64,000 nt of DNA from Candidatus Sysuiplasma jiujiangense (GCA_019721075.1 JAHEAD010000014.1:404-64403), one strand, 5' to 3'. Positions 1,179 through 43,531 are shown, counted from the stretch's first letter. Notes: a model not told the origin generated them from the sequence alone. Program-made: numbers and translations.

Positions 1179-4100
1179 CTACGGCTTCCCTCTTTTCCTG
1201 ACGGCAATTAACGCAATGACAGCCGCTTCGCCGACAATCAGGGCGGCCAGCAAATCGGCCAGCCACACGGGCAGATATGCTGCCGGGGAAACTGCTTTGG
1301 CAGGCTGAGCCGGGTTGGTCACAACCGCTGTCTGCCCGGGCGACAGACTGAGATTCCGATAGAAATCGCCTTCAGCTGTCACGAATTCTACCGTGTAGTT
1401 TCCGGCAGCGAGTTTGATGTCGACATATCCCTGGTTTGTCGGAACGTATCTGCCGTCAACAAAGACGGTGGCATTTTGCGTGGAAAACAATACCAGGTGG
1501 GCGTACTTAAGGTAGTGGATAGAAAGAAAGCGGTTCCCTTCAATGGAAACGACTCCCGAGCCGATCGTAGCGTAGTATGCCGAAAGATTGCGCGGGGTGT
1601 AAGTATAGTTACCGTAGGGCAGAGAGAAATTCTCGTACGCCTGATCAGTTGAATAAACTGTGCCATTCAACATGAAACTCCAGGTCATTCCCGGAGGAAT
1701 ACCCGATTCAGCAACTGTGAGATTGAAGACAACTTCCGAGAAATTGAGATCAAAAGTATAACCGGGTACCGTCTGAACAAATATGATGAATTCAGAGCTA
1801 AACTCGTCGTCAAGCATTATCGGCTTGTCCAGCGTGTACCGTCCTGAAATATTTTGATAATGGTAATTTGCAGCTGCGGAATATGAGTAGTTGCCTGGAA
1901 ACTGGTATACGGTTATGGATGTTCCATTCGTTCTGTAGGAATCAGAGTAGTTGCCCAAAGCAGGGAAGAATGTCTGGTACAACGGGCTGTGCAAATCAAT
2001 GGACCAGTTTGTGTTCGGAGGCAGGCCCTTCATTAAAAAGGTCACGGCATAAAACAGGGGCTGGATTGCAAGATCTGCATACATCAGGCCAGTCGGACCG
2101 GTCACAGGAAGCCTGTTACCGCCTGGTCCGGTGTAGTAACTGATATTGCCTGAATCATTTTCAGCATACTGAAAACCAAAAAATTGATAATAAAACTTGT
2201 ATCCGCTGGCAGAGAGGGTGTAACTATACGTCCCGTTAACTGCATACAAGTGAGTTGTCCCGACGAAACTTTCTCCCAGGGTGAACTGCAGTGACGGACC
2301 ACCAGTGAGGTTCAGATAGAACACTGTGCCGTTTGGTATCGGTAAACTTCCTAGAGGTGTATAGGGAGGTGTGTAGATATGGATGGTTACGTTGGTAACA
2401 AAGAGTCTGAAAAAAATGTACAGTCTAGAGGGGGCTGCTGTAACGTTGAGCGACCCGGAAACTGACATCCATGTCCTGCTGGGACCCTGTGCAACGAAAC
2501 TCAAATTGCCTCTTGGCTCGGCCAAAACCAGTTTGCTCGAGTTAGAACTGTAACTCTGCCCGTAGGAAGTGTTGATCCACCAGTTTGAACCGGAAGGAAG
2601 ACCAGATTCGAAAAAAGTGACATTGGTAAAGTTTTCCCTGATAAATACGACATCCAGGTATGTGTTGCTGCCGGCAACAGTGAAATTACCGCTGAAAGCA
2701 GATGGAATGTAACCAAATCCCTTGCCCGGATAGATGGTGGAAATCCGGAAATCATATGTACCGTTTGGCAGACCGAATGCGACAGAACTGCCATAGGCGC
2801 TCTCCTTAAGTCCAAAAACACTGATATTCCAGAGAGAACCTTGAGGCAGACCGCTTTCATTGAACTGGACCAAATTCATTTTGTACGGCTTTGACTGAAC
2901 AATGCTTATGGACTGGGAGTTCGTGTTTAAGACATAGAAAAGACCGTTAGAACTGTCGTAGGCTGCTGCTGAGGGATTGCTTCCAACAGCTATTTGTCCT
3001 GTAAGGTTGAGTCCGCTGACCTCCTGCACTACACCATGGGGTTCAAGCGCGTAGATAAGACCGTTTCTTGGATTGAAAGTGAGGTTCAGTGCATAATCTG
3101 AAAGATGGATGAAACTGACAATAACACCGTCGTAAATGACCGCTATCTCGTAAAGCCGTGGCAATGATGCGTATGTCAGGTTATTGAGAGGATCGTAGAG
3201 CAGATCCCAGGCGATGCTCGGCAATGAAACGTTTTCGTATAGCGAATTGTTGCCGAATATTGATAAGGTCCAGTAGTTATCAACTGCGGCATACAGTTTG
3301 TCACTTGCATCGTTGAATGAAATTGAATATGGAAGGCTCTGAGGAGTCCCCGCAGTGATGTTTGTTACGGCCTCAAGGCCGCTGATCATCGTGATCTGCC
3401 CGTCCCCGCTATCAGCAACAAACACCGATCCGTTGCTGGAAAGTGTCATTGCAGTGGGTTCTGCGCCTACCGGTATTACCTTCACAACTCCCATGCCGTT
3501 CAGAACAGTGACCTCCGAAGAGCCTGTATCGCTGACGTAAACATAACCATACGCAGAGTCGTAGAGAACATCGTCCGGGCTCTGGCCAAAAACCGGCAAA
3601 TAGCCTTTGACGGTATTGTTGGAGATGAGAATTACCGTGTTGTTAACTGCGTCGGAGACGTACAGCATATTGTTTTCAGGATTGTAAGCGATTCCTCTTG
3701 CCAGGATCGAGAGAGGCACGTCACGTACGACGCCGTTTGCCCCTATGATGATCAGATAGGACGGACTTGCATCATCTATGGCGTAGACGGAGGCGTCAAG
3801 GCTGTCAAAGATCAGGCGCCCCATGAATCCGCTGCCACTGTAAGCCGCTGTTATGCTCAGCCCTTTTATCCGGAGTACGGTGGAGTTCGCTTCATTGCTC
3901 GCATAGATGTATCCGTTAGCTGAATCGTAAGCCATGCCGAGGGAAAACGTATTACTGTCGTTTGGATTTGCAAGCGGTATATATCCAACAATGCTCAAAC
4001 CATTGATGACAAAAATGTATTGCTCCGAATAGTAGTTGGCCACATACAGATCGCCAGAGGCCGGGTCGTATGCAATTTGACCAGCAATTTCAAAACCGGA

Positions 4101-4949
4101 GATAGAAGAAATAACGCTGTTGTTTGAGATTACGTATACGTGAAGCAATCCGTCAGCGTAAATATATCCATCGGAAGGGTCAAATGTCATGTACAGACCG
4201 ATCGAAATGTTGGTCGGAAAATCCCCGACTATTTGAAGTCCTTTGACTTCATACATGATGTGGTAGTCTGCAACATAGACGATCTGATTTACTGGATCAT
4301 AGGCCATCTCAGATGGGCCGCCGAAAGTGCTGTTGGTTATGTTGAGTATGGCAACGACCTTTGTTCCGTTGATAATTGCTACTCCTCCGGTCTGGCTGTT
4401 GCTTGAAGCATATATCCAGCCGTTGGAATAATCGAAGGTCTCGGATGCAATCCCTTTCAGGCCTGTGTTTATTCCTTCTACGATTGTTCCGTTGCGTATA
4501 ACATAAATGTAGCTTCCGCCGCCGTCCCCGATGTAGATGTTGCCGCTCTGATTATCATAAACAATGGAATAAGGCTGAACAATCAACGGAAGGTTTCCGT
4601 TGTTGCCCTGCAGAAGAGTGCTATTTTCAAGTGACAGAGTCTGATAGGCGCCTGAAATTGCATTATTGCCGGAGTTAGAGAGGGTAGAGTGAGCATGTGA
4701 TGAATTGCCAAATGAAGTGCCGGGAAAATCTTTGATAATCGACTCCTGGGCGGGAGTGGGACGCCTCGGCAGCAATTTATTCAGCTGACCGGTCGATTTA
4801 GCATGCGCATTACCGGACGCCGGTCCTGAGATAGGCAGACCGTTCAGGGCCGCATATGAGGTAGGTGCGAAGAGCAGAACAGCCATCAAAACACAAAGCA
4901 CACGAACCTCTGCGAAATTCCTTTTCGCCGCTACTGACGATGTCAACAT
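1179..4949 (-). CDS. Large surface (glyco)protein: signal peptide, 14 YVTN-type beta-propeller repeats, 4 GLPxGxxW Ig-like modules, C-terminal TM anchor
   Basis: Hydrophobic signal-like segment VLCVLMAVLLFAPTSYA near the N-terminus. 14 copies of the [YF]-[DN]-x3-G-x-hY-h repeat (e.g. MAYDPVNQIVYVAD, IAYDPASGDLYVAN). Four copies of ESGLPxGxxW (FNESGLPQGSLW, FFESGLPSGSNW, MKGLPPNTNW, AESGIPPGMTW). Many NxS/T sequons. C-terminal LLAALIVGEAAVIALIAV followed by RKRGKP. Confidence 0.85.
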   Translation of the reverse strand: MLTSSVAAKRNFAEVRVLCVLMAVLLFAPTSYAALNGLPISGPASGNAHAKSTGQLNKLLPRRPTPAQESIIKDFPGTSFGNSSHAHSTLSNSGNNAISGAYQTLSLENSTLLQGNNGNLPLIVQPYSIVYDNQSGNIYIGDGGGSYIYVIRNGTIVEGINTGLKGIASETFDYSNGWIYASSNSQTGGVAIINGTKVVAILNITNSTFGGPSEMAYDPVNQIVYVADYHIMYEVKGLQIVGDFPTNISIGLYMTFDPSDGYIYADGLLHVYVISNNSVISSISGFEIAGQIAYDPASGDLYVANYYSEQYIFVINGLSIVGYIPLANPNDSNTFSLGMAYDSANGYIYASNEANSTVLRIKGLSITAAYSGSGFMGRLIFDSLDASVYAIDDASPSYLIIIGANGVVRDVPLSILARGIAYNPENNMLYVSDAVNNTVILISNNTVKGYLPVFGQSPDDVLYDSAYGYVYVSDTGSSEVTVLNGMGVVKVIPVGAEPTAMTLSSNGSVFVADSGDGQITMISGLEAVTNITAGTPQSLPYSISFNDASDKLYAAVDNYWTLSIFGNNSLYENVSLPSIAWDLLYDPLNNLTYASLPRLYEIAVIYDGVIVSFIHLSDYALNLTFNPRNGLIYALEPHGVVQEVSGLNLTGQIAVGSNPSAAAYDSSNGLFYVLNTNSQSISIVQSKPYKMNLVQFNESGLPQGSLWNISVFGLKESAYGSSVAFGLPNGTYDFRISTIYPGKGFGYIPSAFSGNFTVAGSNTYLDVVFIRENFTNVTFFESGLPSGSNWWINTSYGQSYSSNSSKLVLAEPRGNLSFVAQGPSRTWMSVSGSLNVTAAPSRLYIFFRLFVTNVTIHIYTPPYTPLGSLPIPNGTVFYLNLTGGPSLQFTLGESFVGTTHLYAVNGTYSYTLSASGYKFYYQFFGFQYAENDSGNISYYTGPGGNRLPVTGPTGLMYADLAIQPLFYAVTFLMKGLPPNTNWSIDLHSPLYQTFFPALGNYSDSYRTNGTSITVYQFPGNYSYSAAANYHYQNISGRYTLDKPIMLDDEFSSEFIIFVQTVPGYTFDLNFSEVVFNLTVAESGIPPGMTWSFMLNGTVYSTDQAYENFSLPYGNYTYTPRNLSAYYATIGSGVVSIEGNRFLSIHYLKYAHLVLFSTQNATVFVDGRYVPTNQGYVDIKLAAGNYTVEFVTAEGDFYRNLSLSPGQTAVVTNPAQPAKAVSPAAYLPVWLADLLAALIVGEAAVIALIAVRKRGKP

Positions 4950-4993
4950 TCCGCCATGTCCTGCATGTTTATGTCATTTTGATATTAATATCT

Positions 4994-5009
4994 GTATTTG
5001 TATAGTTCC
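4994..5009. repeat. Left terminal inverted repeat of the IS66-like element
   Basis: GTATTTGTATAGTTCC; its partner at 6530-6547 differs only by an extra TA. Confidence 0.65.
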
Positions 5010-5042
5010 TTATCAAATATGCCGCGATATTTCTCAATAATC

Positions 5043-6446
5043 TCATCCACGGTCTGTACCTGTTGAGAGACAGAGCCGCTGCCTCATCAGTTTCTCAAGC
5101 TCCTCGAACATGTTCATGTCCTTGAGTTTCCATGTTGCGAGGAGCTATGCTATGTACTGGTAGTTCTGTGATCCGTTCTCTGAACGGAATGTTCCTGTGA
5201 TCTTGCGTATGAGGACATGCTCCCTTATTGCCTGCTCGCCCAGATTGTTCGTCGGCTCCATGCGCGGATAGAGGAGGCATGTGTACCAGTGTCCGAGGCC
5301 GTTGCGTATGTAAGTGACGGGTTTTGACAGTTCCGTGTATTCACTGTATTCCTCGACCAGTTTCTCTATGACGCTGTCGGGCTTCTGCTTCGCATCTTCC
5401 CCGGCATTCATTGGAGGATTGCTCTCCTGCAATTTCTTGAGTTCGGTGAACATGGTGTGCATGCGTTCTGAAAGCGCACTGCCATGCTCAGATGCCTCTT
5501 TGAATGCGCGACCTCCCTCAGCAGATGCGCCCAGCATCTCTGTATTGCAGTCTGATTACCGTATGTGCTCCATTCGTCAACAACTGCAGGACCATGAAAA
5601 CCATCCCACATGTCTTCCCTGACGACTTTCCTTCCCCTCGGATCCGTTATGACGGCGAGCACATCGTTCTCATTCGAACGGAATATCCAGAGACACCATT
5701 TTGTCGCCGCTGACTGCCATGCCGATCCCGTCAATGTGCACTCATTTCGCATTGCGGATGCGCTCCTTTGCCGCATCATATTCGGAGCGGCATGCGTCGC
5801 CGACACGGAGGAGTGCGTTATTGATGCCCATGGTGCTTATGCTGAAGTTGTTGTTGACTGCGAGGAACTCCTGTATCTTCCTTATCGGCCCGCTGAGATG
5901 GTACTTGAGCATCGTTATGCAGGCGAGCATGTGGATGCCAAGCGTACCCTTCTGCGGGCAGTCCGTGTGTCTTGCCGTGAACTCCTTGCCGCAGCAGCTG
6001 CATCTGTACACATCGGGTATGAACTCGGTGATCTTCACCTTCTGCGGCGGCAGAATGTCTATTGTTGTCTTATTCTCTGTTCTCACAGGCTCTCCGAGAT
6101 CGGTGTTGCCGCATTCGTTACACTTCTCTGCAGTGACTGTGACAGTCCCATCGTGTTCGGGCATCTTCCTGGTGGCGCCCATGTGTTCTTAGGGTGCGCC
6201 ACGTTTCTTCTTCGCCTTTTCTTCCTGCTTCTTCTCATTCTTCTGCAGGGATGGAAGGGGTATGTGGTTTTCATGAAGCAGCAGCCTGTGCAGCAGCTGT
6301 TCCATCTCAGATCTCAGTTTTCCATTCTCCGACCTGAGAACATCGGCCCTCTTCAGCGCTTCATCACGCTCTGCAGTGAGATGTATTGTTGTTTTCTCAA
6401 GCTGCGAGACGTGCGGTTTCTGTTCCTTCTTCCCTTCAGCAGCCAT
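5043..6446 (-). pseudogene. IS66-family transposase broken by two in-frame stops and two frame changes
   Basis: The pieces are: a leucine-zipper-like N-terminus (6446-6192); TAA at 6189-6191; a zinc-finger segment CNECGN...CSCCGKEF in the same frame; the catalytic core with CWAHLLREV in a different frame (5806-5411); a return to the first frame (5537-5148); TAG at 5145-5147; and a conserved tail ATWKLKDMNMFEEL running to TGA at 5043-5045. Confidence 0.8.
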
Positions 6447-6936: not shown

Positions 6937-7040
6937 TTCCCCCTTTGATTCAACAAAGGAATGGAGTTTCCTTTCGACTGCCGGATGCTGGCTGATAACT
7001 CCTGCCATTGTGATGTTAATAATCAGAGGAGGTCAGCCGG

Positions 7041-8579
7041 TTGGAATTTCACAGCATACTGTGGTTGCCTGAACATGCGAAAGCTTGGAAGGACGAGGTT
7101 GAAGCACCCGATTCGTTCCCGGATTTGAATCTGGATCGTGTCGTAAGTGATATCACCTCCAATCACAAATACAAAGAGTACGAATTGGAGAAATTTTATT
7201 ATCGCCTGCTGGCTGGAAAAGAGGCTGTAGTCTACCGCCAGCAGATATTTCAGGACCTCCAGGATCAGACCAAACTCGAGCTCATAAGGGATTTTGCCCA
7301 TGCAATGAAGAGAACGGAGAGCAGGATTCGTTCTGCCAGCCGGTATCCGTACGAATATCAGAAGGAAAGGGAGATATTGGACTCTGCAAAAATTTATTGC
7401 GATGCCGTGGCCGCCCTTTCAGCAGCAATAGTCCGCGCCGATTTTAAATCGGCTGGATTCCTGGCATTTGCAGATTTACTGACTGAATATGTAAACTCGG
7501 ATGAATTCAAAATGCTTGCAAAGGAAACCGAATCCCTGGAGAAGGATTTGCTAAACGTGGAGTATTCACTCATCATTAAGAGTGATGGGGTCATTATAAG
7601 GAGGTTTGCACCCGCACAGGATTACACAGCGGAATTAGCCGGGGTTTTTGAAAAATTCAAGAATGATAAATCCGAGATGGTCAAGGTTAGAACACCAAGT
7701 CACCATGATATAAATCATGTTGAGGCAATCCTCGTGGAATTGATAGCAAAATTCTATCCTGCCGTTTTCCAGAAACTGAAAGCATATTTTGAAAAATATT
7801 CTGATTATGTGAATCCTGCAATTCGGAGATTTTACAGGGAAATACAGTTCTATCTGTCCTACATCGACTACATCGTCCCGATGGAGAGCGCAAATCTGAA
7901 ATTCTGCATCCCTTCAATTTCTGAAGTAGACAGGAATATACTTATTCGGGATGGTTTCAATATTGCACTCGCTTCCGTTCTCATCCATAAGAGGGAGAAG
8001 GTGATATGCAATGATTTCCTTCTCGAAGGTGACGAGCGTATTGTTGTTGTGACAGGCCGCAATCAGGGGGGAAAGACTACCTTCGCAAGCTCCCTGGCCC
8101 AGATCGAATATTTGGGATGCCTGGGCCTGCCCGTACCCGCGAGTTATGCTCGGCTGTGTATCGTCGACGAAATTTTCACCCATTTCCAGAAAGAGGAGGC
8201 GGGCGAAAATCTGAGAAGCGGACTCGAAGATGATCTGCTCAGAATCCATGATGTCATTATGCATAGCACAGCTGAAAGCATGATAATCATAAACGAAATG
8301 CTCAGTTCGTGCACTTTGCAGGATGCCTCAGCCATTGGCAAGAAAATTCTGGGAACGATACAAAAAATAGGCTGCATTTGTGTTTACGTGACTTTCATTC
8401 ACGATCTCATCGAATTCGACAAAACAGTGTGTATGACAAATGAGGTTGACCCGCATAATCCTGATATTTCGACTTACAAACTCGTAAGAAAGCGACCGGA
8501 TACAGATTCTTATGCCATCCATATGGCCAGAAAATACGGACTGACTTACGATCAGTTGAGAGGGAGGTTGATGTCATGA
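7041..8579 (+). CDS. MutS-domain-V (ABC-type) ATPase, paralog A; no mismatch-binding or nuclease domain
   Basis: TTG start preceded by AGGAGG (7027-7032). N-terminal FHSILW...PDSFPDLNLDRV. C-terminal ATPase with Walker A TGRNQGGKTT, Walker B IIINE (Asn in place of Asp) and His-loop VTFIHDL. It ends directly after the ATPase domain. Confidence 0.8.
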   Translation: MEFHSILWLPEHAKAWKDEVEAPDSFPDLNLDRVVSDITSNHKYKEYELEKFYYRLLAGKEAVVYRQQIFQDLQDQTKLELIRDFAHAMKRTESRIRSASRYPYEYQKEREILDSAKIYCDAVAALSAAIVRADFKSAGFLAFADLLTEYVNSDEFKMLAKETESLEKDLLNVEYSLIIKSDGVIIRRFAPAQDYTAELAGVFEKFKNDKSEMVKVRTPSHHDINHVEAILVELIAKFYPAVFQKLKAYFEKYSDYVNPAIRRFYREIQFYLSYIDYIVPMESANLKFCIPSISEVDRNILIRDGFNIALASVLIHKREKVICNDFLLEGDERIVVVTGRNQGGKTTFASSLAQIEYLGCLGLPVPASYARLCIVDEIFTHFQKEEAGENLRSGLEDDLLRIHDVIMHSTAESMIIINEMLSSCTLQDASAIGKKILGTIQKIGCICVYVTFIHDLIEFDKTVCMTNEVDPHNPDISTYKLVRKRPDTDSYAIHMARKYGLTYDQLRGRLMS

Positions 8580-10060
8580 ATGTTTTCTTGCTTTTCAGGG
8601 ATCGTAATTTCGACTGGAAAAAGAACCTTCCTTACAATGAGCAGGAACTGCTGCACGATCTCGACCTGGATGTAATATTGAAGGTGATGTCTGCTGGCGA
8701 CTCCTATATCTATTCAGTCGCCAAAGCCGTTATTTTGTGCGGGGAAATGGATACTGCAACAATCAGATACCGTCAGGAAGTGCTAAATGACTGCACATCA
8801 GTGTATCCGCAGGTAAGAGATCTTTATCACATTGTTGTTAAGACGATTGAAACGGTGAAAAAAGACTTCTGGCTGACAGGCAACCGGCCTTTAATTCATC
8901 TCAGCACATCAACAAGCATAATGCGCATTCTGTTCAATGCACTAAGGGATCTGAGGCACATCGCAGATTTTTATTCCAAACAATTCAAATCCGAAGGTTT
9001 CAGGTCGCTTCTGGCGATGCTGAGAACGGAGTTCAGCGACGAATACATCAGGAATGTAGAAAACCATCTTGATGAACTCGAATTCAATAATGGTGTTCTG
9101 GCGACTGCCCGTCTGGGTATGGGGAACATCGGAGCGGATTATAGACTTCACAAGAGAAGAGAAGGAAGACGTGATGTGAAACGGATTCTTTCAGGGAAAA
9201 GGGACCAGTATGTCTTTACCATCGATCCGCGGGATTATAACAGTTCTCAATCTCTTTCAGCCCTCAGGGACAAGGTAATAGGCAATGCCACGTTGATGCT
9301 CTCGGAATCAGTCAGTCATGTGCTTGGTTTCTTCAACGACTTTCGTGGTGAGTTAGGTTTCTATATCGGATGTCTCAATCTGCATGATCAACTGAACCGG
9401 AATGGTTTACAGTTTTGCATGCCATTACCTTACGAACTTAATTCAAATATGTTCTCCTTCACAGGGCTGTATGATATCTCTCTCGCCCTGAGGCTTGGCG
9501 GTAGAATCGTAGCGAATGACCTCGATGCAAGAAACAGGAAACTGATAATAATCAGCGGTGCCAACAGAGGAGGCAAATCAACCTTCCTGAGAAGCATTGG
9601 CTTGGCTCAGTTGATGATGCAATGCGGAATGTTCGTGGCCGCCGGGTCCTATGAATGTGAAGTATCTGACGGCATTTTCACCCATTTCAAAAAGGAGGAA
9701 GATGCTGAAATGAGAATGGGGAAGCTTGACGAGGAATTGAAACGATTCAGTGATATCGTAGATCACCTGAGTCATGGATCGATGCTGCTGCTCAATGAAT
9801 CTTTTGCCTCAACAGACAACAGGAATGGTGCCGAAATCGCCTCTCAGGCCTTAGGTGGACTTATGGAATATGGAATAAAAATCCTGTTTGTGACACACAA
9901 TAATGAGGCGGCAGACAGATTTTACAGGAAGAATCCGGCAGATGCTGAATTCCTCAGGGCTGAAAGAAAGCATGACGGAAGCAGGACGTACAGAATAATA
10001 AGGGGAGAACCGCTGAAAACAAGCTTTGCGGAGGATCTTTATAACAGTATTTTCGGGTGA
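8576..10060 (+). CDS. MutS-domain-V (ABC-type) ATPase, paralog B
   Basis: The start overlaps the upstream stop (ATGA). Walker A SGANRGGKSTFLRSIG, GKLDEEL signature-like motif, Walker B LLLNESFAST, His-loop FVTHNNE. Confidence 0.8.
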   Translation: MNVFLLFRDRNFDWKKNLPYNEQELLHDLDLDVILKVMSAGDSYIYSVAKAVILCGEMDTATIRYRQEVLNDCTSVYPQVRDLYHIVVKTIETVKKDFWLTGNRPLIHLSTSTSIMRILFNALRDLRHIADFYSKQFKSEGFRSLLAMLRTEFSDEYIRNVENHLDELEFNNGVLATARLGMGNIGADYRLHKRREGRRDVKRILSGKRDQYVFTIDPRDYNSSQSLSALRDKVIGNATLMLSESVSHVLGFFNDFRGELGFYIGCLNLHDQLNRNGLQFCMPLPYELNSNMFSFTGLYDISLALRLGGRIVANDLDARNRKLIIISGANRGGKSTFLRSIGLAQLMMQCGMFVAAGSYECEVSDGIFTHFKKEEDAEMRMGKLDEELKRFSDIVDHLSHGSMLLLNESFASTDNRNGAEIASQALGGLMEYGIKILFVTHNNEAADRFYRKNPADAEFLRAERKHDGSRTYRIIRGEPLKTSFAEDLYNSIFG

Positions 10061-11190: not shown

Positions 11191-13215
11191 ATGAAGATCA
11201 AGAATGGTGACAAGGAAGTGGAGGACGGGACAATTCTATGGCAGCCGGATAATACATTTGTTGAAAATTCAAACATTGCCAGATACATGCACTATCTGGA
11301 AAATAACGGGATATGCAGTGCCGATGATTACGAATCGTTATGGCGCTGGTCAACGTCCGACACAGCGGCATTCTGGAAGTCGATTGTCGACTACTTCGGT
11401 GTCAGGTTTGGAAGTGACTATTCCAGGGTGATGTCGTCAACCCGTATGCCTGGCGTCAGATGGTTCGAAGGCGCTACACTGAACTACACCCAATGCCTGT
11501 TAGATAAAAACGAACGGGACGATACCTCAATTATATCGGTTTCCGAAACAAGGCCAAGACGAGAAGTGTCAATGCAGAAGCTCCTTTCAGATGCAGAGAG
11601 GGTTCGAAACTTTTTCAGCACCGCCGGAATAATGCCGGGTGACAGAATTGCCGCATATCTGCCGAATATCAGCGAGGCCGTGGAATCATTTGTTGCCACA
11701 GCTGCGTCAGGTGCAGTATGGTCAAGCTGTTCGCCGGATTTCGGCAGGAAGAGTGTCATCGACAGGTTCAGCCAGATAGAGCCGAAACTGCTCATTGCGG
11801 TGGACGGATACATCTATGGCGGCAGGACCTACGACAGGATTGATACAGTGGAGAGTATTCTGAAAGAGATACCCAGCATCAAGCAGGTTATACTGATTCC
11901 ATACCTCAACAGTGGTGCAAGAGTCAGGAGTGCCGTGCTGTGGGACGATGTTGTTGGAGGAAGAACGCACGGATCCGATTTCGTTTCACCCGTGCCCGTC
12001 GAATTCAACCATCCGCTTTGGATCCTCTATACGTCGGGTACTACCGGACTTCCAAAGCCCATCGTGCACAGTCATGGAGGGATTCTTCTCGAACACCTGA
12101 AGACACACTTTCTTCACTTTGATCTTGGTCCGAAAGACACTTTTTTCTGGCTAACGACAACCGGATGGATGATGTGGAATGTTGTGGTTAGCGCATTGCT
12201 TACCTCCTCGAAAATTGTTCTTTTTGATGGGAATCCGGCATACCCGGATCTTGATACACTCTGGCGTCTGGCGGAGAAGGAAAAAATAACCCATTTCGGC
12301 ACCAGTGCGGCTTACATTTCCTCATGCAGGAAGGAGGGGGTGTCTCCAGGTGAAACGTTCAAACTCGGTCAGTTGCGGGCCCTTTCATCAACGGGCAGCC
12401 CCCTTCTGCCTGAAGGATTCAGCTGGGTTTATGAAAAGGTGAAAGATGACATCTGGCTTTCATCCGTGAGCGGCGGAACAGATGTCTGTTCCGGCTTCGC
12501 CCTGGGATGCCCGCTGCTTCCGGTGAAAGCGGGAAGAATACAATGCAGAGCACTTGGAGCAGCCGTGCATTCGTTCGACGAGCAGGGCAATTCCCTCGTT
12601 GATGAAGTTGGAGAACTTGTGATCACACAACCTATGCCTTCAATGCCGATATATTTCTGGAACGACGAAAAGATGACGAAATACAGGGAGAGTTACTTCG
12701 AGCAATACGACGGGGTATGGAGGCATGGCGACTGGGTGAAAATTTTCAGGGATGGCAGTCTTGAAATTTACGGCAGATCGGATGCGACTCTCAAGAGAAG
12801 AGGCATAAGGATCGGTACCGGTGAACTGTACAGGGCGGTCGAAAACATGGACGAGATTATAGACAGTCTCGTAATCGGCATAGACATTGAGGGGGGTGTC
12901 TATTACATGCCCATGTTTGTGGTCCTGAGGAACGGGATCACCCTGAATTCTGAACTGAGGAAAAGGATAGAAGAGAAAATAAGAAATGAGCTGTCTCCCA
13001 GACATGTACCTGACGATATAATACAGGTCACAGAAATACCCAAAACACTAACAGGAAAGAAACTCGAAATACCTGTCAAAAGGATACTCTCGGGTGTTTC
13101 TCCAGGCAAGGCGGTGAATCCCGGATCAGTAGCTAACATGGATGCGCTGAACGACTTGATAGAACGGGGCAGAAATGCAATCAACGCAAAATTCAAAGAC
13201 ACGCGCCGAATATGA
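11191..13215 (+). CDS. Acetoacetyl-CoA synthetase (acetoacetate-CoA ligase)
   Basis: 674 aa. AMP-binding motif LYTSGTTGLPKPIVHSHGG; N-terminal LWQP...NIARYM and overall length typical of this family. Confidence 0.85.
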   Translation: MKIKNGDKEVEDGTILWQPDNTFVENSNIARYMHYLENNGICSADDYESLWRWSTSDTAAFWKSIVDYFGVRFGSDYSRVMSSTRMPGVRWFEGATLNYTQCLLDKNERDDTSIISVSETRPRREVSMQKLLSDAERVRNFFSTAGIMPGDRIAAYLPNISEAVESFVATAASGAVWSSCSPDFGRKSVIDRFSQIEPKLLIAVDGYIYGGRTYDRIDTVESILKEIPSIKQVILIPYLNSGARVRSAVLWDDVVGGRTHGSDFVSPVPVEFNHPLWILYTSGTTGLPKPIVHSHGGILLEHLKTHFLHFDLGPKDTFFWLTTTGWMMWNVVVSALLTSSKIVLFDGNPAYPDLDTLWRLAEKEKITHFGTSAAYISSCRKEGVSPGETFKLGQLRALSSTGSPLLPEGFSWVYEKVKDDIWLSSVSGGTDVCSGFALGCPLLPVKAGRIQCRALGAAVHSFDEQGNSLVDEVGELVITQPMPSMPIYFWNDEKMTKYRESYFEQYDGVWRHGDWVKIFRDGSLEIYGRSDATLKRRGIRIGTGELYRAVENMDEIIDSLVIGIDIEGGVYYMPMFVVLRNGITLNSELRKRIEEKIRNELSPRHVPDDIIQVTEIPKTLTGKKLEIPVKRILSGVSPGKAVNPGSVANMDALNDLIERGRNAINAKFKDTRRI

Positions 13216-14572: not shown

Positions 14573-14832
14573 TCTGCTCACTGCTGAAACGTCATTGATC
14601 GGCCATCAAGCTTCCTGATTCAACCGCTGTGAGTTAATCCAGGCTTCATTAAATGCAGATTGCTCAGGCATTCGTCGGCATTCGCTGCATATTCAATTTC
14701 AGGAAACGGAAATAGTGAGTATTCCAACGAACACTGCCAAGCCGCTTATTGCGCAAGAGGGACTGTGATAAGCAGCCGATTACTGAAAGGATGCAGTCAA
14801 ATCTCCAGCGAAGAATTCAGGCACATCAAGTA

Positions 14833-14849
14833 TTTATAAAATATCAATG
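14833..14849 (+). promoter_or_regulatory. TATA box/promoter of the vWA-PP2C operon (implies a leaderless mRNA)
   Basis: TTTATAAAATATCAATG ends 11 nt before the ATG at 14861. The 13-mer TAAAATATCAATG (14837-14849) recurs identically at 18461-18473. Confidence 0.5.
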
Positions 14850-14860
14850 TTCTTTGTGTC

Positions 14861-15700
14861 ATGTCGTACGAAGCTGAAATAAGCAGGTCCAATCCTACAC
14901 TGGTCCTTTTTATGATCGACCAGTCGAAATCGATGAGCTACAAGCTTCCGGGGGGAGAACGATCGAAGGCTATGGAAGCATCGGATGCCGTTAACAGGCA
15001 GATTGGCGAATTCGTGCTCCGCTGCACGAAGAGCGACGGGATAAGAGACTATTTTTATGTCGGAGTAATCGGTTACGGCTTCACCACTGGAAAGGCTGCA
15101 TTTATACTCAAGGGCGACAGGGTAAATCCCATCTCCAGGCTCGCCACAAGCACGCTGAGGGTGGAAAAGAGACAGATGAAGGTTTCAGACGGTGTGGGAG
15201 GCGTGAGCGAAGTGGACTACGACTTTGGAGTCTGGTTTGAAGCGACCGCTAACGGAGACACGCCGATGTGCAAGGCGCTGACTCTTGCAAAGGACACTGT
15301 AAAGGAGTGGATCGAGGCCCATCCGGGCTCGTATCCCCCGATACTGATAAATATAACAGACGGCCAGGCAACGGATGGAGATCCTGTAAAGGTCGCATCG
15401 GAGATAACTTCATTGAACACTTCCGACGGATCGCCGCTGTTGTGGAATTGTCACCTTTCGTCCAATCCGGCAGTACCAATCTCCTTCCCTTCATTCGAGT
15501 CTGACCTACCCGACGACAAATATGCAAAATCGCTCTTCACAATGTCAAGCGAGCTGCCTTCCCAGTACATAGGCTACGCGAGGGAAATGCAGATTGACCT
15601 GAAGGACAACGCACGGGCATATGTCTTCAATGCGCAGCTCGAACAACTCGTTCAGTTCATAGACATAGGAACAAGAGGGCCGCAGGGGCAGATGCAGTAG
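14861..15700 (+). CDS. von Willebrand factor A (vWA) domain protein with complete MIDAS, TerY-like
   Basis: MIDAS residues present: FMIDQSKSMS (DxSxS), NGDTPM (Thr) and INITDGQATDG (Asp). Confidence 0.85.
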   Translation: MSYEAEISRSNPTLVLFMIDQSKSMSYKLPGGERSKAMEASDAVNRQIGEFVLRCTKSDGIRDYFYVGVIGYGFTTGKAAFILKGDRVNPISRLATSTLRVEKRQMKVSDGVGGVSEVDYDFGVWFEATANGDTPMCKALTLAKDTVKEWIEAHPGSYPPILINITDGQATDGDPVKVASEITSLNTSDGSPLLWNCHLSSNPAVPISFPSFESDLPDDKYAKSLFTMSSELPSQYIGYAREMQIDLKDNARAYVFNAQLEQLVQFIDIGTRGPQGQMQ

Positions 15701-16435
15701 TTGCTCGCTGTACATGAGTTTCACAGACCCAAGACGGGAAACAGCGAAGGTGAATACGAGGATGCATTTGCCTGGGATGAGTCTGCGGGCGCATTTGCAG
15801 TTGCCGACGGTGCAACTGAATCGAGTTTTTCCGATCTGTGGGCGGGTGCGCTCGTCTCGACATTCATTGAAAACCCTCCTGATTTCAGCAGGAATGACAG
15901 GGATGTAATGAGGGACATACTCAGGCAGGCAAGGGACAGGTGGTACCGTGCAATCGACTGGGATTCACTTCCATGGTTTCAGAAGAACAAGGCGTATCTG
16001 GGCTCGTATTCCACCCTGCTCGGCCTTCAGATTGGCGCAGAAGGGAACAGCAGAAGATTCAGGTGCATTGTTGTCGGTGACTCGTGCATGTTCAATATCA
16101 GCGGCCAGAAACTGGAATCTTTCCCGTTTGCCGACAGCCAGGACATGAATAACACTCCAAGACTTATGTGGAGCGGACTTGGAACGCCTTCAGGACTGGA
16201 GAAGGATGTTGAAATTCCGGGGATAGAGGTAAAATACGGATGGCTCAGAAAAGGAGATACAGTCATGCTTGCTACGGATGCGCTCTCCAAATGGATCCTC
16301 CAGCACAAGGCAGAAAGGCCATGGGAAACACTCCTTTCCCATGCAGACAGCTTCGACTCCTTCATAGGGAATCTGATCGCCGAGGGAAAGATCAAGAATG
16401 ACGACGTTACGCTGATTTTCATTTCTATATCCTAG
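15701..16435 (+). CDS. PP2C/SpoIIE-like Ser/Thr protein phosphatase
   Basis: TTG start directly abuts the vWA TAG stop. Motifs EDAFAWD, AVADGATES, VVGDSCMF, LATDALSKW. Confidence 0.75.
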   Translation: MLAVHEFHRPKTGNSEGEYEDAFAWDESAGAFAVADGATESSFSDLWAGALVSTFIENPPDFSRNDRDVMRDILRQARDRWYRAIDWDSLPWFQKNKAYLGSYSTLLGLQIGAEGNSRRFRCIVVGDSCMFNISGQKLESFPFADSQDMNNTPRLMWSGLGTPSGLEKDVEIPGIEVKYGWLRKGDTVMLATDALSKWILQHKAERPWETLLSHADSFDSFIGNLIAEGKIKNDDVTLIFISIS

Positions 16436-18086
16436 CAAGCCGCTGGGGATCGCAACCTTCCCACAGCGGATCGCGTCTTACGGCATCGCAGAGCAGTTCC
16501 GTCAGTTGTCCCGCCCTGCCCCTGGTTTTCGTGAGTTCGTTTATCACCCTTGAACGTGAAGGGTCAAGGAAGTCGCTCTTCCGGAATATAAGGCAGTCCT
16601 GGTCTCCTTTGTTGTATTTGGTCCAGAGTGATGGATCCTCCGCCACGGCAATCAGCGAAAGGTATGTGACAAGTATAGAGAAATTGTCAAGGCGCTCCGA
16701 GTAGCTGTTCGAAGTCCTCATTGGATGCTGAAAATTGTCATGCCCAAGCTCCGGTGATTTGGTGCCAGAGAACTCCGGCACATACATGCCGTCGTAGTCG
16801 ACAAGAGTGAATGATCCCGAGGGGCCTATCACTATATTGTCCCCTGAAATATCCCCATGCGCTATTCCGGCACTCCTTATCCGCACCATTTCGTCGATAA
16901 ATGTGGATGCAAGACCATTCAGTGCCGCTCTGTTGCGCAGTTGCTCTGATATGAATGTATTCAGTGTTTTTCCCTCAACCCAGTCCATACGAAGGACAGG
17001 AAAATACATTGCAGGATTCCTGAAAGTCCTGATTGCCCCTGGAAGGTATTGAAAATTTACAAACGCATATCCCTTTGCATGTAACGGCTCCAGCGCTTTT
17101 GAAATTGCCAGGTACCGCTTGTTCAGGTCCTGTTTGCTGCGCGTAAAGCATTTCAAGGCGAGTGCAGATCCGTTGTTTTCCAGTTTGAAAATAATGCCGT
17201 AATTTCCAGAGGAATAGGCGACGTTTCCAGGCAACTTGATAAACGGGTTGGGGACAACCTTCGAATTTTTAAGCGCAGCATAGCCCGGAGAAATGCTGAA
17301 GCCTATATTCTGCATTGCGCGGGTGTAATCACTCTGGCCAGGCCACGGCACGTTCGCAGGGATAACGTCAGTAACCTTTTGTGCAGGAACTGAAGGAGTA
17401 TTCGTGCTTTCGGGAAACGCGCTCCTCTGCCTGCTGGCAGTTTTCGCAGCGCGTCCGGACGGAGATTTGCGCGGAGCTGGAGGATTCGGAGAATGTGCCG
17501 TTACGGCGGCAACAGACGGGCTGCCCGTCGAAATGGTTCCTGCAGGCTGTCCAGACGAGCCTGTATTTAAATCGAGAATCGAAACACTCCTTGTGGCCGG
17601 ACGAACGAAGAAGGAACAGGTAAAAATGACAAATCCCGAAATGGCCACATAATAAGGCGGAAGGAAAAATGCAATTACGACAAGCGGGAGAGTGGTTGAC
17701 AGAAAGGACATTCTTGACAGCCGTTCCCTGACGGCTAATATGACGACAGCATCCACCGACGCTATCAGTGCGACTATCATAATAAGGCTGTAAAGCGGAT
17801 TGAGCGGATTGCCATAGAAAAACGTGGCGGCGATGAGGAGTACGCCGTAGGCTGAATAGAGCGATCTGTAGGAGCCGAGATATCCCCTTGCAAATGAATA
17901 AGCGAGCAGTGCTGAACAGGCAGCAGCCACGATGACGGCGTGATAGAGCTCGAACAGCTTGAAGGCTGAACCGAAATGCAGGTATGAATAAGCGAACGTG
18001 AGGGTCTCTTCCAGCCACATAAGGGGAACAACGAGGAGGAACAGTATCACAAGCAAAGGGACAAGGTACCTCGCGGATGGTTTCAT
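16425..18086 (-). CDS. Polytopic membrane Ser/Thr protein kinase (5-6 N-terminal TM helices, S/P/A-rich linker, C-terminal Hanks-type kinase core)
   Basis: Catalytic-lysine context LALKCF, catalytic loop IAHGDISGDNIVI, LVDYDG in the DFG position. Several long hydrophobic segments in residues about 5-165. The 3' end overlaps the PP2C gene by 11 nt (convergent). Confidence 0.8.
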   Translation of the reverse strand: MKPSARYLVPLLVILFLLVVPLMWLEETLTFAYSYLHFGSAFKLFELYHAVIVAAACSALLAYSFARGYLGSYRSLYSAYGVLLIAATFFYGNPLNPLYSLIMIVALIASVDAVVILAVRERLSRMSFLSTTLPLVVIAFFLPPYYVAISGFVIFTCSFFVRPATRSVSILDLNTGSSGQPAGTISTGSPSVAAVTAHSPNPPAPRKSPSGRAAKTASRQRSAFPESTNTPSVPAQKVTDVIPANVPWPGQSDYTRAMQNIGFSISPGYAALKNSKVVPNPFIKLPGNVAYSSGNYGIIFKLENNGSALALKCFTRSKQDLNKRYLAISKALEPLHAKGYAFVNFQYLPGAIRTFRNPAMYFPVLRMDWVEGKTLNTFISEQLRNRAALNGLASTFIDEMVRIRSAGIAHGDISGDNIVIGPSGSFTLVDYDGMYVPEFSGTKSPELGHDNFQHPMRTSNSYSERLDNFSILVTYLSLIAVAEDPSLWTKYNKGDQDCLIFRKSDFLDPSRSRVINELTKTRGRAGQLTELLCDAVRRDPLWEGCDPQRLARI

Positions 18087-18112: not shown

Positions 18113-18121
18113 TCTATAAAG
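18113..18121 (-). promoter_or_regulatory. TATA-like element upstream of the kinase gene
   Basis: The minus strand reads CTTTATAGA about 30 nt upstream of the ATG at 18086. Confidence 0.4.
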
Positions 18122-18459: not shown

Positions 18460-18473
18460 TTAAAATATCAATG
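18460..18473 (+). promoter_or_regulatory. TATA box/promoter of the KaiC-like gene
   Basis: TTAAAATATCAATG ends 17 nt before the ATG at 18491 and contains the same 13-mer as the vWA promoter. Confidence 0.5.
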
Positions 18474-18490: not shown

Positions 18491-20356
18491 ATGGAGAAGA
18501 AGGAAATAGCGGCAAAAGCACTTGAATTTGCTGCAAGGCAGGAAAATATTGAGAAGGACACCGTCGCCGCTGGTCAGATCAGGGATTTTCTTGCCAGATA
18601 CCCTTTCAAAGAGAAGCCGGAGCTTCTGAGAACGATAGCTCCAAACGATCTTTATGACAGGAATGCCGACGATCGCTTTTTTGACTGGCTGACAGAAAGA
18701 ACCGGCATGGTAGGCCAGCTGTCCGGGTATGAAAAGGTCATCTTTTCTGAAGCGGTAAGACGATTTGACTTCCTGAAAGTGCTGCTCACGGTTCTTGTTT
18801 CCGACAAGAGGAGTGTTTCATTCAAGATTGATCAGAACTGGGGGGTCATACCGGGCTTTGGAGGCGACAAGCTGATCGCCAAGAAGCTTATCGCCATTTA
18901 CTACCCGGAAGGGGTGATCCCGGTTTTCAGGACTGAAGACCTGGAACAATTCTCGGTCCAGCTGGGTATTCCGTTTAAGAACAGTGCGTTACAGCGGTAC
19001 AGGAAGGATTATTCACTCCTCTCGGTAGGACAGAGATTTGAACTGCTGAATTCGGGATTGATGGAGTTCAAGGCCGCATATCTCGAAAAAATAACAAACA
19101 CACTGCTCGCATCATTCCTATATCATGCATTCCTGCCTTCCTTACCGCAGAAGTCCGCACCTCCGCCTGCAGCAGAGAAGCAGCTGCAGCCGAAAGCTGA
19201 AGAGGAACTTGCAAGGGCAACACAGGACTTCGAGGCAAGACTCAGGGAGGCTGACAGAACAATTAGGGAACTGAGGAACGAGGTGAAGAGCAGGGGAGAG
19301 AGCATAAGCAGACTTGAGGATAAACTGCGCACTCTGGGTGAGGAAATAAGGAAGAAGGAGTCCGACATTCAGCGGAGGGAAGAAATGATGCAGGAGGAGC
19401 TCCGGCAGTCGGATGCCAGGAATAAGCTTTTTAGCGAAGCCGAAAAGTCTGAACTGAGGAAAACGATAACAGAACTTACCAGACAGATAGAGGAGAAGGA
19501 AGAAAGACTCAAATCGCTGGAAAGGAAGCTTTCCGAACAGGAGGGACAGGTGAGGATAGGAGAGAGTGATTTCATCGATGGCGAAATCGGGACTTTTGAG
19601 AGTCCTTCCGCTCCGGATGAAAACCATCCAAAGGCAAAGACCGGCATTCAGAGGCTTGACGATCTCCTGATGGGAGGCATACCGGTTGGCTCACAGGTGA
19701 TAGTATATGGGCCATCATTCATCGGAAAGGAGATAGCAATCGACGCTTTTGCAGCCCAGGGTCTGAGCGAAGGCGTTCCACTTGTCTGGATCACCACAGA
19801 CAGGACAATAGACGAAATAAGGGAGGAAATGTCCCTCCTTCTGAACAACTACACGGAGTATGAGAAGAAAGGCCTTGTTTTCTATATCGACGCCTATTCA
19901 AGGATCGTAGGGGATACCTCCGTTTCTGAAAATACTGCATACCTGGATGACACCAGCAACGTAGAAAGCATAGGCGACATGACAAACAGCCACATTGCAT
20001 CGATCGACGCACTTGCAAAGGACAAAGGATACAGGCTGGTATTCAGATCCGTGTCGAGTCTGAGCGCGAACCACGACATAAAGAATATTTTCGCATTGCT
20101 GAGGCAGTTTGTTGCGCACAGGAGGAAGGACAGGTGTATCGGCGTCTACAGCATAGAAAGGGGCATCATGTCGGAACAGGATTTGCAGATAATAAGCAGC
20201 ATCATGGATGGAGTCATTGAATTTTCCACCGACACGAAGAACAATTTTCTCGCCGTCCGCGGGATATGCGATACACAGACAAGGGACAAAATCCAGTATA
20301 CTGCCGGAAAGAACACACTCAACATCGGTTCATTCTTCCTGGGCCGAATTAAATAG
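18491..20356 (+). CDS. Three-part protein: unassigned N-terminal helical domain, long coiled coil, C-terminal KaiC/RecA-superfamily (COG0467-like) domain with degenerate P-loop
   Basis: The E/K/R-rich heptad-like region spans about residues 225-355 (EELARATQDFEARLREADRTIRELRNEVK...). The C-terminal TGIQRLDDLLMGGIPVGSQVIVYGPSFIGKE resembles KaiC/RadA-like ATPases, but the Walker A ends in GKE rather than GK[ST]. Confidence 0.7.
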   Translation: MEKKEIAAKALEFAARQENIEKDTVAAGQIRDFLARYPFKEKPELLRTIAPNDLYDRNADDRFFDWLTERTGMVGQLSGYEKVIFSEAVRRFDFLKVLLTVLVSDKRSVSFKIDQNWGVIPGFGGDKLIAKKLIAIYYPEGVIPVFRTEDLEQFSVQLGIPFKNSALQRYRKDYSLLSVGQRFELLNSGLMEFKAAYLEKITNTLLASFLYHAFLPSLPQKSAPPPAAEKQLQPKAEEELARATQDFEARLREADRTIRELRNEVKSRGESISRLEDKLRTLGEEIRKKESDIQRREEMMQEELRQSDARNKLFSEAEKSELRKTITELTRQIEEKEERLKSLERKLSEQEGQVRIGESDFIDGEIGTFESPSAPDENHPKAKTGIQRLDDLLMGGIPVGSQVIVYGPSFIGKEIAIDAFAAQGLSEGVPLVWITTDRTIDEIREEMSLLLNNYTEYEKKGLVFYIDAYSRIVGDTSVSENTAYLDDTSNVESIGDMTNSHIASIDALAKDKGYRLVFRSVSSLSANHDIKNIFALLRQFVAHRRKDRCIGVYSIERGIMSEQDLQIISSIMDGVIEFSTDTKNNFLAVRGICDTQTRDKIQYTAGKNTLNIGSFFLGRIK

Positions 20357-42376: not shown

Positions 42377-43531
42377 TCAGGGTACTGCCGGAAGATGGAG
42401 CAGCGCAAACATGATGCTTCCGAGCAAATAGGTAGCTGATGCCGCGCCAAGCGTCAGACCCACAGTTTCCAGGACCTTCTTCAGTACGGATGTGTCGGAA
42501 GACAGCGCAATGATTGTAGCGGCAGTAGTCTGTGCAGCTGCGACTGCAATAACGGAGAGTACGAGGCCCGTGATTCCGCCGACGAAGGCAAAAGGCAATA
42601 TCGGAAACGCGGATCCTATCAGGTAGAATAAGCCAGTCTGGAGTCCAGCCCTCCTCGGATTTTCGTCTGTATCACGGGATCTCCCGAGCTTGTTCCTTAC
42701 AAAAAACTCGGTGGCGGCGTCCTGATTCTGGGCCATGGAGCGTGCGGCCTGCTCGGTATAATCCCCCTGCAGTCCCATTTCATCGAGCATCGATTTGAGG
42801 CGCCCGACCTTCTCTTCATGGCTGACGAACTCAATTTCCCTGGCGACTCTGTCAGCCTGCCTCCTGCCGATCTCAATGTGCGCCTTTGTGGACATGTAAG
42901 CGCCTATTGCCATCGAGAGTGTCCCGGAAATGCCCACGACCAGACCACCTGCGGCCACTAGAATCGGCGTGTGCACAATGGGCACAAGTCCTGCAACAGC
43001 CGCCAGAACCTCCACCAGGCCGTCGCTCATGCCGTAGAAAACATCCCTGATGGACTCCAGGCGGCTCGAAACGCCGCTGAGCTGTGATGCGAAATATTCC
43101 TCATGCAGAACTTCATCGGTGATAATTGAATGGAGCTTCTCCCTGTCTTCAGCATCCAGGGATTCCACGTTCAGGAAATTTGTATATTCCACGATTACAG
43201 ATTCTTCCCCTCTCTCGAAGAGCCTGATAACGAGGGGGAGTCCGATGAGCCTTCGCAGTACAAGTATAAAGGCAGACTTGTAGCGTGGATAACGGTAATC
43301 TGCACGGGACTCGCCGTGCTTGCGAAGGAAATAATTCCAGAAATCGGCATGCGATTTTTCCATAGCGCCCAATTTGGAAAGAAGTATTCCCTTCTCCCTG
43401 TCCCTCTCACTGTTCCCAAGACGTGAATAGACCTCCGCATCCTTCAACTCCCCTTTGTAGAACCATCTGGCTTTTTTGACCACTTTACTGGAGACGGAAG
43501 TCATTCGCTCACTTTTGCTTCCTTCTATCAT
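42377..43531 (-). CDS. Ferritin-like (erythrin) domain fused to a VIT1/CCC1 iron transporter
   Basis: N-terminal four-helix-bundle-like region (EKSHADFW, DEVLHEEYF). C-terminal GMSDGLVEVLAAVAGL followed by multiple TM helices. Confidence 0.75.
   Translation of the reverse strand: MIEGSKSERMTSVSSKVVKKARWFYKGELKDAEVYSRLGNSERDREKGILLSKLGAMEKSHADFWNYFLRKHGESRADYRYPRYKSAFILVLRRLIGLPLVIRLFERGEESVIVEYTNFLNVESLDAEDREKLHSIITDEVLHEEYFASQLSGVSSRLESIRDVFYGMSDGLVEVLAAVAGLVPIVHTPILVAAGGLVVGISGTLSMAIGAYMSTKAHIEIGRRQADRVAREIEFVSHEEKVGRLKSMLDEMGLQGDYTEQAARSMAQNQDAATEFFVRNKLGRSRDTDENPRRAGLQTGLFYLIGSAFPILPFAFVGGITGLVLSVIAVAAAQTTAATIIALSSDTSVLKKVLETVGLTLGAASATYLLGSIMFALLHLPAVP

Follow-up and report, generated by a model that had tools for sequence, protein, structure and literature searches.

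We analysed a 64,000-nucleotide (nt) stretch of DNA from Candidatus Sysuiplasma jiujiangense (GCA_019721075.1 JAHEAD010000014.1:404-64403), hereafter called the window. At positions 14861-18086 it carries three adjacent genes for a von Willebrand factor A (vWA) protein, a PP2C-like phosphatase and a Ser/Thr kinase, a combination that an earlier note on this DNA had likened to the TerY-P triad. Checking the open reading frames (ORFs) bore out all three genes: the vWA gene at 14861-15700 (+ strand, 279 residues), the PP2C gene at 15701-16435 (+ strand, 244 residues, TTG start) and the kinase gene at 16425-18086 (- strand, 553 residues). Every motif that had been quoted was found, namely DQSKS (residues 20-24), GDTPM (132-136) and ITDGQ (165-169) in the vWA protein, AVADGATES, VVGDSCMF and LATDAL in the phosphatase, and LALKCF, HGDISGDNIVI and VDYDG in the kinase. 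Because the TerY-P hidden Markov models (HMMs) of PADLOC match all three proteins, the locus is, by sequence criteria, a member of the TerY-P family in a rearranged variant; the only family feature that its sequence lacks is the OB fold or zinc ribbon. The statement that TerY-P appears in the anti-phage list of Gao et al. 2020 also proved correct (PMC7699616, PMC11090510). Our literature search found no paper describing the Thermoplasmata triad and no description of the mechanism or input signal of TerY-P.

The vWA protein gave the strongest match of the three, aligning to the PADLOC TerY model at 3.2e-91 over model positions 1-275 of 277. Its metal ion-dependent adhesion site (MIDAS) is complete, as had been claimed, comprising D20, S22, S24, T134 and D167, and these residues are at least 99% conserved among 123 archaeal and bacterial vWA homologs. 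Equally conserved in the same set (at least 99%) are T171-D-G, S200, S229/S230 and the C-terminal DIGT271R. Lying outside the MIDAS, T171, S200, S229/S230 and T271 of the DIGTR motif are candidate acceptor sites for phosphorylation. Pfam VWA_2 matched the protein with a score under its gathering threshold, and a sequence search of the PDB returned no relative. The phosphatase was matched over its full length by the PADLOC PP2C model (4.7e-30) and passed the Pfam PP2C_2 gathering score (33.4 bits against 24), in agreement with its assignment as PP2C-like. An alignment of four Thermoplasmata sequences shows no variation at D21, D36, G37, D127, D193 and D234/D235. The PDB sequence search with this protein produced a spurious match only. 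No transmembrane (TM) or hydrophobic segment was found in the vWA protein or the phosphatase, so both should be cytoplasmic.

The catalytic domain of the kinase (residues 246-553; 16428..17351, - strand) belongs to the TerY-P kinase family, as judged from PADLOC STK_OB, AlphaFold2 and Foldseek. STK_OB matches the protein at 3.2e-60 while covering only model positions 35-272 of 562. An OB fold or zinc-ribbon tail was found neither in the STK_OB coverage nor in the AlphaFold2 model, in which the protein ends with the helices of the C-lobe and nothing follows. Residues K312, H410-G-D412, N417 and D430-Y-D-G are conserved in alignments. The family motif W-P...D-Y...A-x-Q-N stands just before the kinase core, with W248-P in the 553-residue protein, and forms the extreme N-terminus of bacterial family members. 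The predicted local distance difference test score (pLDDT) mostly exceeds 85 across the folded domain (residues ~245-553), and Foldseek matched the model to the kinase domains of Myt1, Wee1, PAK and PknB with a probability of 1.00. Alignment and model together confirm an intact kinase core with a predicted kinase fold. With Pfam Pkinase the protein scored 20.7 bits, below the gathering score of 31.7. Pfam alone thus leaves the HMM check ambiguous, and it is the system-specific PADLOC models and structure that settle the assignments. On alignment no catalytic residue is missing in any of the three proteins: the MIDAS, the acidic PP2C residues and the kinase residues are all intact. All three are orthologs of their bacterial TerY-P counterparts. 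The residue on strand beta3 that anchors ATP (K312 in the window) is Arg (A[VLI]RCF) in five of the six non-Thermoplasmata kinases aligned and Lys (ALKCF) in all Thermoplasmata ones.

The kinase domain is preceded by a membrane module and a linker. AlphaFold2 (27 orthologs in the alignment, mean pLDDT 80.8) placed TM helices at residues 3-19, 39-66, 72-90, 97-118, 122-141 and 144-160, with a short extra helix at 23-33. Hydropathy peaks over residues 1-160 (17607..18086, - strand) agree with these helices, refining the earlier count of five to six to six TM helices and one short one. Clusters of Arg and Lys (K2/R6, R67/R74, R120-R125 and R162/R166) occupy alternate loops and so fall on one side. 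By the positive-inside rule we infer that both termini face inwards (N-in/C-in), which puts the kinase domain in the cytoplasm, and that the outward-facing loops are ~4-15 residues long. Between membrane and kinase lies a juxtamembrane linker rich in Ser, Pro, Ala and Thr (residues 171-245; 17352..17576, - strand), whose disorder and composition match the S/P/A-rich linker described before: pLDDT is below 50 over residues 177-239 of the model, and residues 171-285 are 14% Ser, 14% Pro and 12% Ala. Linker length and sequence differ between orthologs.

A profile search with the six-helix module returned only nine matches among 1.84 billion representative proteins, of which six are kinases of the window's clade and three are short proteins (133-255 residues) that are possibly fragments. 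Because the matches are confined to this kinase clade, the module is, by its sequence distribution, a lineage-specific invention. JGI names one ortholog a 'Ca2+/Na+ antiporter', which we treat as an annotation artefact, the module having no relatives outside the kinase clade. Kinase N-termini are of three types: six TM helices in the window's clade, two in Thermoplasma, and a soluble form in the Cuniculiplasma/Thermogymnomonas clade. By prediction, then, six helices specific to the clade hold the kinase to the membrane and expose almost no loops on the outside. The earlier note had named the polytopic membrane kinase as a distinguishing feature. Membrane association in itself does not distinguish it, being common in the kinase family, but the reversed domain order, the N-terminal six-helix module and the absent OB/zinc-ribbon tail are real peculiarities.

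The three genes are tightly packed. The TAG stop of the vWA gene is followed without any spacer by the TTG start of the PP2C gene, as had been noticed, and the same junction is present in 12 related genomes. Its retention in relatives points to translational coupling of the two genes. The kinase and PP2C genes are convergent and their 3' ends overlap by 11 nt. A TATA box of the vWA-PP2C operon, TATTTATAAA, lies at 14831..14840 (+ strand), ~25 nt 5' of the ATG, and in 12 related loci TATTTATAA(A) precedes the vWA gene at equal distance. On the opposite strand, a TATA-like element, CTTTATAG (18114..18121, - strand), stands ~30 nt 5' of the kinase ATG; it recurs at the equivalent place in locus L005, with TATATAG in L006. 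From these elements, the kinase gene is transcribed convergently from a putative TATA-like promoter of its own.

Next, the conservation of the triad among relatives was studied. Genome contigs were scanned with two narrow peptide patterns, which yielded 17 loci, all of a single sub-clade. The arrangement vWA -> PP2C -> <- kinase was present in 19/19 sufficiently long loci, the window included. Homologs occur in Thermoplasma volcanium GSS1, T. acidophilum, Thermogymnomonas acidicola, Caldiplasma sukawensis, Cuniculiplasma divulgatum and Sysuiplasma. This conservation across cultured and uncultured Thermoplasmata had been absent from the earlier note, and it indicates from the loci compared that the triad is a lineage-wide feature and no peculiarity of one genome. 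In one locus, that of Thermoplasmatales archaeon UBA582 (L017), two ORFs (3865-4461 and 4604-5134, - strand) stand in place of a single kinase gene, for which a frameshift, a pseudogene or faulty assembly may account.

From the closest relative to the most distant, identity to the window falls from 90% to 60% for the vWA protein, from 81% to 38% for PP2C, from 75% to 42% for the kinase domain and from 55% to undetectable for the TM module. The highest vWA value is that of Ca. S. superficiale. Over all genomes the vWA protein, PP2C and kinase diverge in one common rank order. This shared order indicates, at the level of sequence identity, that the triad evolves as a unit in which the vWA protein is the slowest and most constrained. 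In a midpoint-rooted neighbour-joining tree of 123 vWA sequences, which has no support values and names no organism for most leaves, all named Thermoplasmata proteins fall in a clade of 71 and the Verrucomicrobia and Calothrix references in a clade of 52. The Verrucomicrobia triad (L022) is co-directional and its proteins are 42% (vWA), 36% (PP2C) and ~36% (kinase) identical to those of the window; the triad on a Calothrix megaplasmid is also co-directional. Chance adjacency of the three genes is excluded by the arrangement in 19/19 loci together with the triads in bacteria.

The window as a whole is ordinary chromosome; its other genes include those for methionyl-tRNA synthetase, ABCE1, a Pelota-like protein, urocanase, an M1 peptidase and enzymes of coenzyme A (CoA) metabolism. 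The triad of the window is flanked by CoA metabolism, and those of relatives by V-ATPase, PCNA or eRF1 genes; one clade of seven species has identical triad flanks. PADLOC found nothing at E <= 1e-5 among the ten ORFs flanking the triad, and the neighbourhood is not a defence island. Relatives of the vWA protein numbered zero in phage genomes and in IMG/VR. Against 72,556 plasmids, a collection assumed to contain ter-operon plasmids, tblastn gave two matches only, both on cyanobacterial megaplasmids. For the three triad proteins PHROGs returned nothing and NCBIfam nothing near any curated cutoff. Neither tandem repeats nor CRISPR-like arrays were found in the window.

As had been noted, no Ter-family or archaellum genes lie near the triad, and Pfam detected none in the 40 largest ORFs of the window; nor did it detect FHA domains among the neighbours of the triad or elsewhere in the window. 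The absence of Ter genes does not set this locus apart, however, since in the literature TerY-P either stands alone or accompanies CoCoNuT. Other genes adjoin the triad in relatives. In L003 an APH-family (PF01636) kinase-like gene (11228-12112, - strand) stands directly 5' of the vWA gene, with the same position in L011-L019, and a formamidase gene flanks the kinase in the same clade, whose vWA proteins are 76-79% identical to that of the window. This may be local synteny that has been conserved, or else the clade has an additional partner of its own. In L001, a Ca. Sysuiplasma superficiale-like contig, DEDD_Tnp_IS110 and Transposase_20 fragments (11398-12541, - strand) lie directly beside the vWA gene, and this IS110 element may explain why triad flanks differ among close relatives.

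We also checked the KaiC-like gene beside the triad (18491-20356, + strand, 621 residues). The neighbour is real, with PF06745 matching residues 383-587 at 3.4e-18. It adjoins the kinase gene divergently in six loci (the window, L001, L005, L006, L008 and L024), equivalent to five or six genomes, as L001 and L005 give identical values and may be one organism. In L024 the kinase and KaiC-like proteins are only 48% identical to those of the window and the genes on both flanks differ. No KaiC-like gene was found in the sequence surrounding the triads of more distant Thermoplasmata, and as a component of the triad it therefore does not stand. Every organism-named protein among its 28 homologs is from a Thermoplasmata/Thermoplasmatota archaeon. 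The KaiC-like protein is probably a clade-specific, functionally linked partner outside the core triad. Sysuiplasma also has shorter KaiC-like paralogs of ~545 residues without the helical N-domain.

The KaiC-like protein comprises a helical N-domain (residues 1-215), a coiled coil (~230-360) suggested by matches to coiled-coil families, and a KaiC/RecA-like domain (380-621). The N-domain model is all-helical (pLDDT 76) and its Foldseek comparison with the PDB gave no significant match (best E = 1.7), while PDB matches of the C-domain included RecA, PH0186 and KaiC. NCBIfam scores were low for both ArlH (29.9 bits, E = 4.3e-7; cutoff 215) and circ_KaiC (18.5 bits; cutoff 546). The P-loop at residues 398-405, GPSFIGKE, aligns to GPESSGKT of RecA. 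A canonical Walker A GK[S/T] was not found in the protein; the Glu of GKE takes the place of the Mg-coordinating Ser/Thr. As this GKE P-loop is nearly invariant in orthologs, the ATPase chemistry is predicted to be non-canonical.

The KaiC-like gene had also been credited with a promoter matching that of the triad. An exact 13-mer, TAAAATATCAATG, is indeed shared, with only two exact copies in the window: one in the vWA promoter (14837-14849, + strand), overlapping the TATA box, and one in the KaiC-like promoter (18461-18473, + strand), 17 nt 5' of the ATG. The 13-mer is mostly TATA box, however, and the pair is not kept in relatives, in none of whose promoters was its 10-mer core found. Upstream sequences set side by side have in common only the TATA box and an occasional TCAATG. 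Co-regulation through a specific shared operator is thus unsupported.

Taken together, these observations lead us to propose, with a probability of roughly 0.6, that the triad is a reversible Ser/Thr phospho-switch, fixed in the chromosome and working on the cytoplasmic side of the membrane, that serves lineage-wide stress or homeostasis signalling and is not a mobile antiviral system. A vertically inherited switch is favoured over mobile defence because of the conservation across the lineage, the single vWA clade, the housekeeping flanks and the lack of viral matches. In the proposed mechanism the kinase domain would sit at the inner face of the membrane and would be activated from inside the membrane or from that face, for instance by membrane, proton or metal stress or by a membrane protein as partner; alternatively, the six-helix module may merely localise the kinase. 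The inputs suggested in the earlier note, envelope stress or virus sensing, are speculative. The kinase would phosphorylate the soluble vWA protein, its own Ser/Thr-rich linker or both, and PP2C, translated together with the vWA protein, would reverse this and reset the state. Phosphorylation would change the partner that the vWA MIDAS binds by way of a bridging divalent cation. The best candidate for this partner or output in Sysuiplasma-like genomes would be the divergently encoded KaiC-like coiled-coil protein.

Several points weigh against a fixed housekeeping switch. Anti-phage defence is the only role of TerY-P that has been demonstrated experimentally (Gao et al. 2020; PMC11090510, PMC7699616). 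The term lineage-wide rests on sampled loci and not on a presence/absence census of Thermoplasmatota, and the vWA tree lacks support values and consists mostly of unnamed sequences. Sysuiplasma-like genomes do not all have the same triad flanks, and in L001 the triad has an IS110 transposase beside it, both of which indicate some relocation. One Sysuiplasmataceae assembly has its KaiC-like ortholog on another contig. The TM module is poorly conserved, with only P21 invariant, so that a plain anchor fits equally as well as a sensor. Finally, that the vWA protein would be the substrate of the kinase is an assumption.

Antiviral defence is a somewhat unlikely alternative, in which virus attachment or entry activates the membrane kinase and phosphorylation of the vWA protein or other targets either stops the infection or sets off dormancy or abortive infection. 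PADLOC defence models match all three proteins strongly, and TerY-P with OB-fused kinases protects E. coli against T7-like phages (PMC7699616, PMC11090510). A membrane-embedded kinase would be well placed for sensing entry, and the variable flanks in Sysuiplasma-like genomes, with IS110 adjacent in L001, also count in its favour. By contrast, the kinase here is without the OB/zinc-ribbon tail, the part thought to bind nucleic acid, the neighbourhood in the window is not a defence island, and searches of phages and viral contigs turned up no vWA relatives. The triad has one apparent origin over the orders of Thermoplasmata, with vWA proteins 60-90% identical and stable flanks in the seven-species clade. 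Fast-turnover defence genes seldom show such lineage conservation.

We consider it improbable that the triad is a metal-stress sensor, in which the vWA MIDAS reports the cytoplasmic load of divalent or toxic metal and the kinase and phosphatase turn it into a phospho-signal, of use to acidophiles living in metal-rich mine drainage. The MIDAS is conserved (at least 99%), and all named hosts are Thermoplasmatales or Sysuiplasmatales lineages, known as acidophiles. The window also holds a gene for a VIT-family iron/manganese transporter (42377-43531), unlinked to the triad. However, there are no adjacent metal-resistance or Ter genes, and our data do not separate a metal input from membrane or pH stress. 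The MIDAS metal usually serves the binding of a protein ligand rather than the sensing of concentration, as in vWA/integrin I domains. A metal-sensing role is in line with the hypothesis, set out in PMC11090510, that TerY-P is a metal-sensing, phosphorylation-dependent switch, a proposal of Anantharaman, Iyer and Aravind.

There is very little chance that the triad regulates the archaellum or motility in the way of ArnA/ArnB, a reading for which speak a vWA protein under Ser/Thr kinases and phosphatases (ArnB; PMC5007285) and the weak similarity of the KaiC-like neighbour to ArlH, which lies far under the 215-bit cutoff, and which is effectively refuted by gene content, with neither FHA/zinc-finger ArnA-like nor archaellum genes in the window and with PP2A and PTP instead of PP2C in the Sulfolobus network (PMC5007285), or that the genes are three unrelated neighbours, given an arrangement conserved in 19/19 loci and in bacteria.

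Extending the favoured reading of a fixed phospho-switch, the triad could be an ancestral, vertically inherited housekeeping signalling device, not defence, that in Sysuiplasma-like archaea forms a four-component module, with membrane kinase, PP2C and vWA adaptor governing a KaiC-like coiled-coil pseudo-ATPase whose helical N-domain is of a previously unseen kind. We regard this extension as rather unlikely. If true, the KaiC-like protein would be the first identifiable output of TerY-P, and this would suggest that the bacterial anti-phage TerY-P was recruited from, or runs parallel to, a general membrane- or metal-stress switch. If the housekeeping switch is true, automatic annotation of such archaeal loci as defence would be misleading. 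Genomes of Thermoplasmatales are reported to be without two-component systems (PMC5007285), and the triad may therefore be one of the few dedicated signalling modules in these archaea. The triad is present in the culturable Thermoplasma acidophilum, T. volcanium and Cuniculiplasma divulgatum, and the candidate output protein in one sub-clade. The practical value is moderate, a testable lead rather than a new kind of system.

Some features elsewhere in the window are recorded here. A fluoride riboswitch (RF01734, 37.7 bits, above the gathering score) lies at 6948-7011 (+ strand), and 30 nt 3' of it are two overlapping ORFs of ~500 residues each (7041-8579 and 8576-10060, + strand), with MutS domain V as their only Pfam match. 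Judged by sequence, the arrangement resembles an archaeal operon that responds to fluoride and encodes MutS-like ATPases instead of a crcB/eriC transporter. ARAGORN reported an 88-nt 'tRNA-???' with the four-base anticodon 'cata' at 61942-62029 (- strand), where the Rfam tRNA score is below the gathering score; either an archaeal tRNA(CAT) with an intron or a false-positive call could explain it. The window begins with a DDE_3/HTH_32 transposase (61-948, + strand) and also encodes a 1256-residue NHL-repeat protein (1179-4949, - strand) and a stand-alone Cas4-like PD-(D/E)XK nuclease (59747-60730, + strand).

To place the locus among known systems, we compared it with phosphatases and phospho-switches described elsewhere. 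Tvo-PPM of Thermoplasma volcanium (Dahche et al. 2009) is, according to PMC5007285, the sole biochemically characterised archaeal PPM/PP2C, a Mn2+-dependent enzyme acting on pSer, pThr and pTyr. It is a small PP2C of the same archaeal class; 218 residues are reported for it against 232 called for the T. volcanium triad PP2C, and we do not equate the two.

The type VI secretion system (T6SS) switch of Pseudomonas aeruginosa, PpkA/PppA/Fha1, is an analogue without homology of organisation and likewise brings together a membrane Ser/Thr kinase, a PP2C and a vWA domain. There, however, the vWA is fused to the kinase, the substrate is an FHA protein and T6SS genes are adjacent. In this threonine-phosphorylation pathway PppA is the PP2C and Fha1 the FHA substrate. 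PpkA itself consists of a kinase with a C-terminal vWA (PMC1262709).

In Sulfolobus acidocaldarius an archaeal vWA protein, within ArnA/ArnB, is controlled by Hanks-type kinases and phosphatase; the phosphatases of this network are PP2A and PTP, not PP2C (PMC5007285). The FHA/zinc-finger partner and the archaellum genes that belong to that system were not found in the window. The parallel with ArnA/ArnB drawn earlier thus holds as a functional analogy but not in organisation, and ArnA/ArnB is a precedent, by analogy of function only, for a phospho-regulated vWA adaptor in archaea.

Closer are the bacterial receptor-type kinases, represented by L022, which have an orthologous kinase domain (~36%), are membrane-associated and form a triad with a 279-residue vWA protein and PP2C. 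In these bacterial homologs the kinase comes first, very often with one TM helix behind it (~residue 360-440), after which come WD40 or TPR repeats. The Thermoplasmata kinases have the reversed order, and the outward loops of the six-helix module are short (~4-15 residues), against the large repeat domains of the bacterial proteins.

Known TerY-P kinases carry either a C-terminal OB fold, in the stand-alone systems of Gao et al., or a zinc ribbon, in the CoCoNuT-associated ones (PMC11090510). The CoCoNuT/Ter-associated triads (Type II / III-A, McrBC-related) share vWA, PP2C and kinase with the window; they differ in the zinc-ribbon tail and in forming operons with CnuH/CnuE, McrBC-type or Ter genes, none of which was found in the window by Pfam and PADLOC scans. 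The stand-alone TerY-P of Gao et al. and the triad of the window have in common the same three families in adjacent genes with intact MIDAS, PP2C and kinase residues, the N-terminal WP...DY...QN kinase motif and the HGD, DYDG and QHP motifs. By contrast, the archaeal kinase has no C-terminal OB fold, and an N-terminal six-helix module and linker precede its kinase domain. Genes of bacterial TerY-P are co-directional, whilst the kinase gene here is convergent with a 3' overlap, and the host here is an archaeon in whose lineage the triad is conserved in housekeeping contexts. The archaeal clade thus has a stripped-down TerY-P, reduced to a membrane tether and lacking the OB fold, the zinc ribbon and the WD40 tail. 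The identification as TerY-P is solid, and what sets the locus apart includes the architecture and the lineage-wide conservation.

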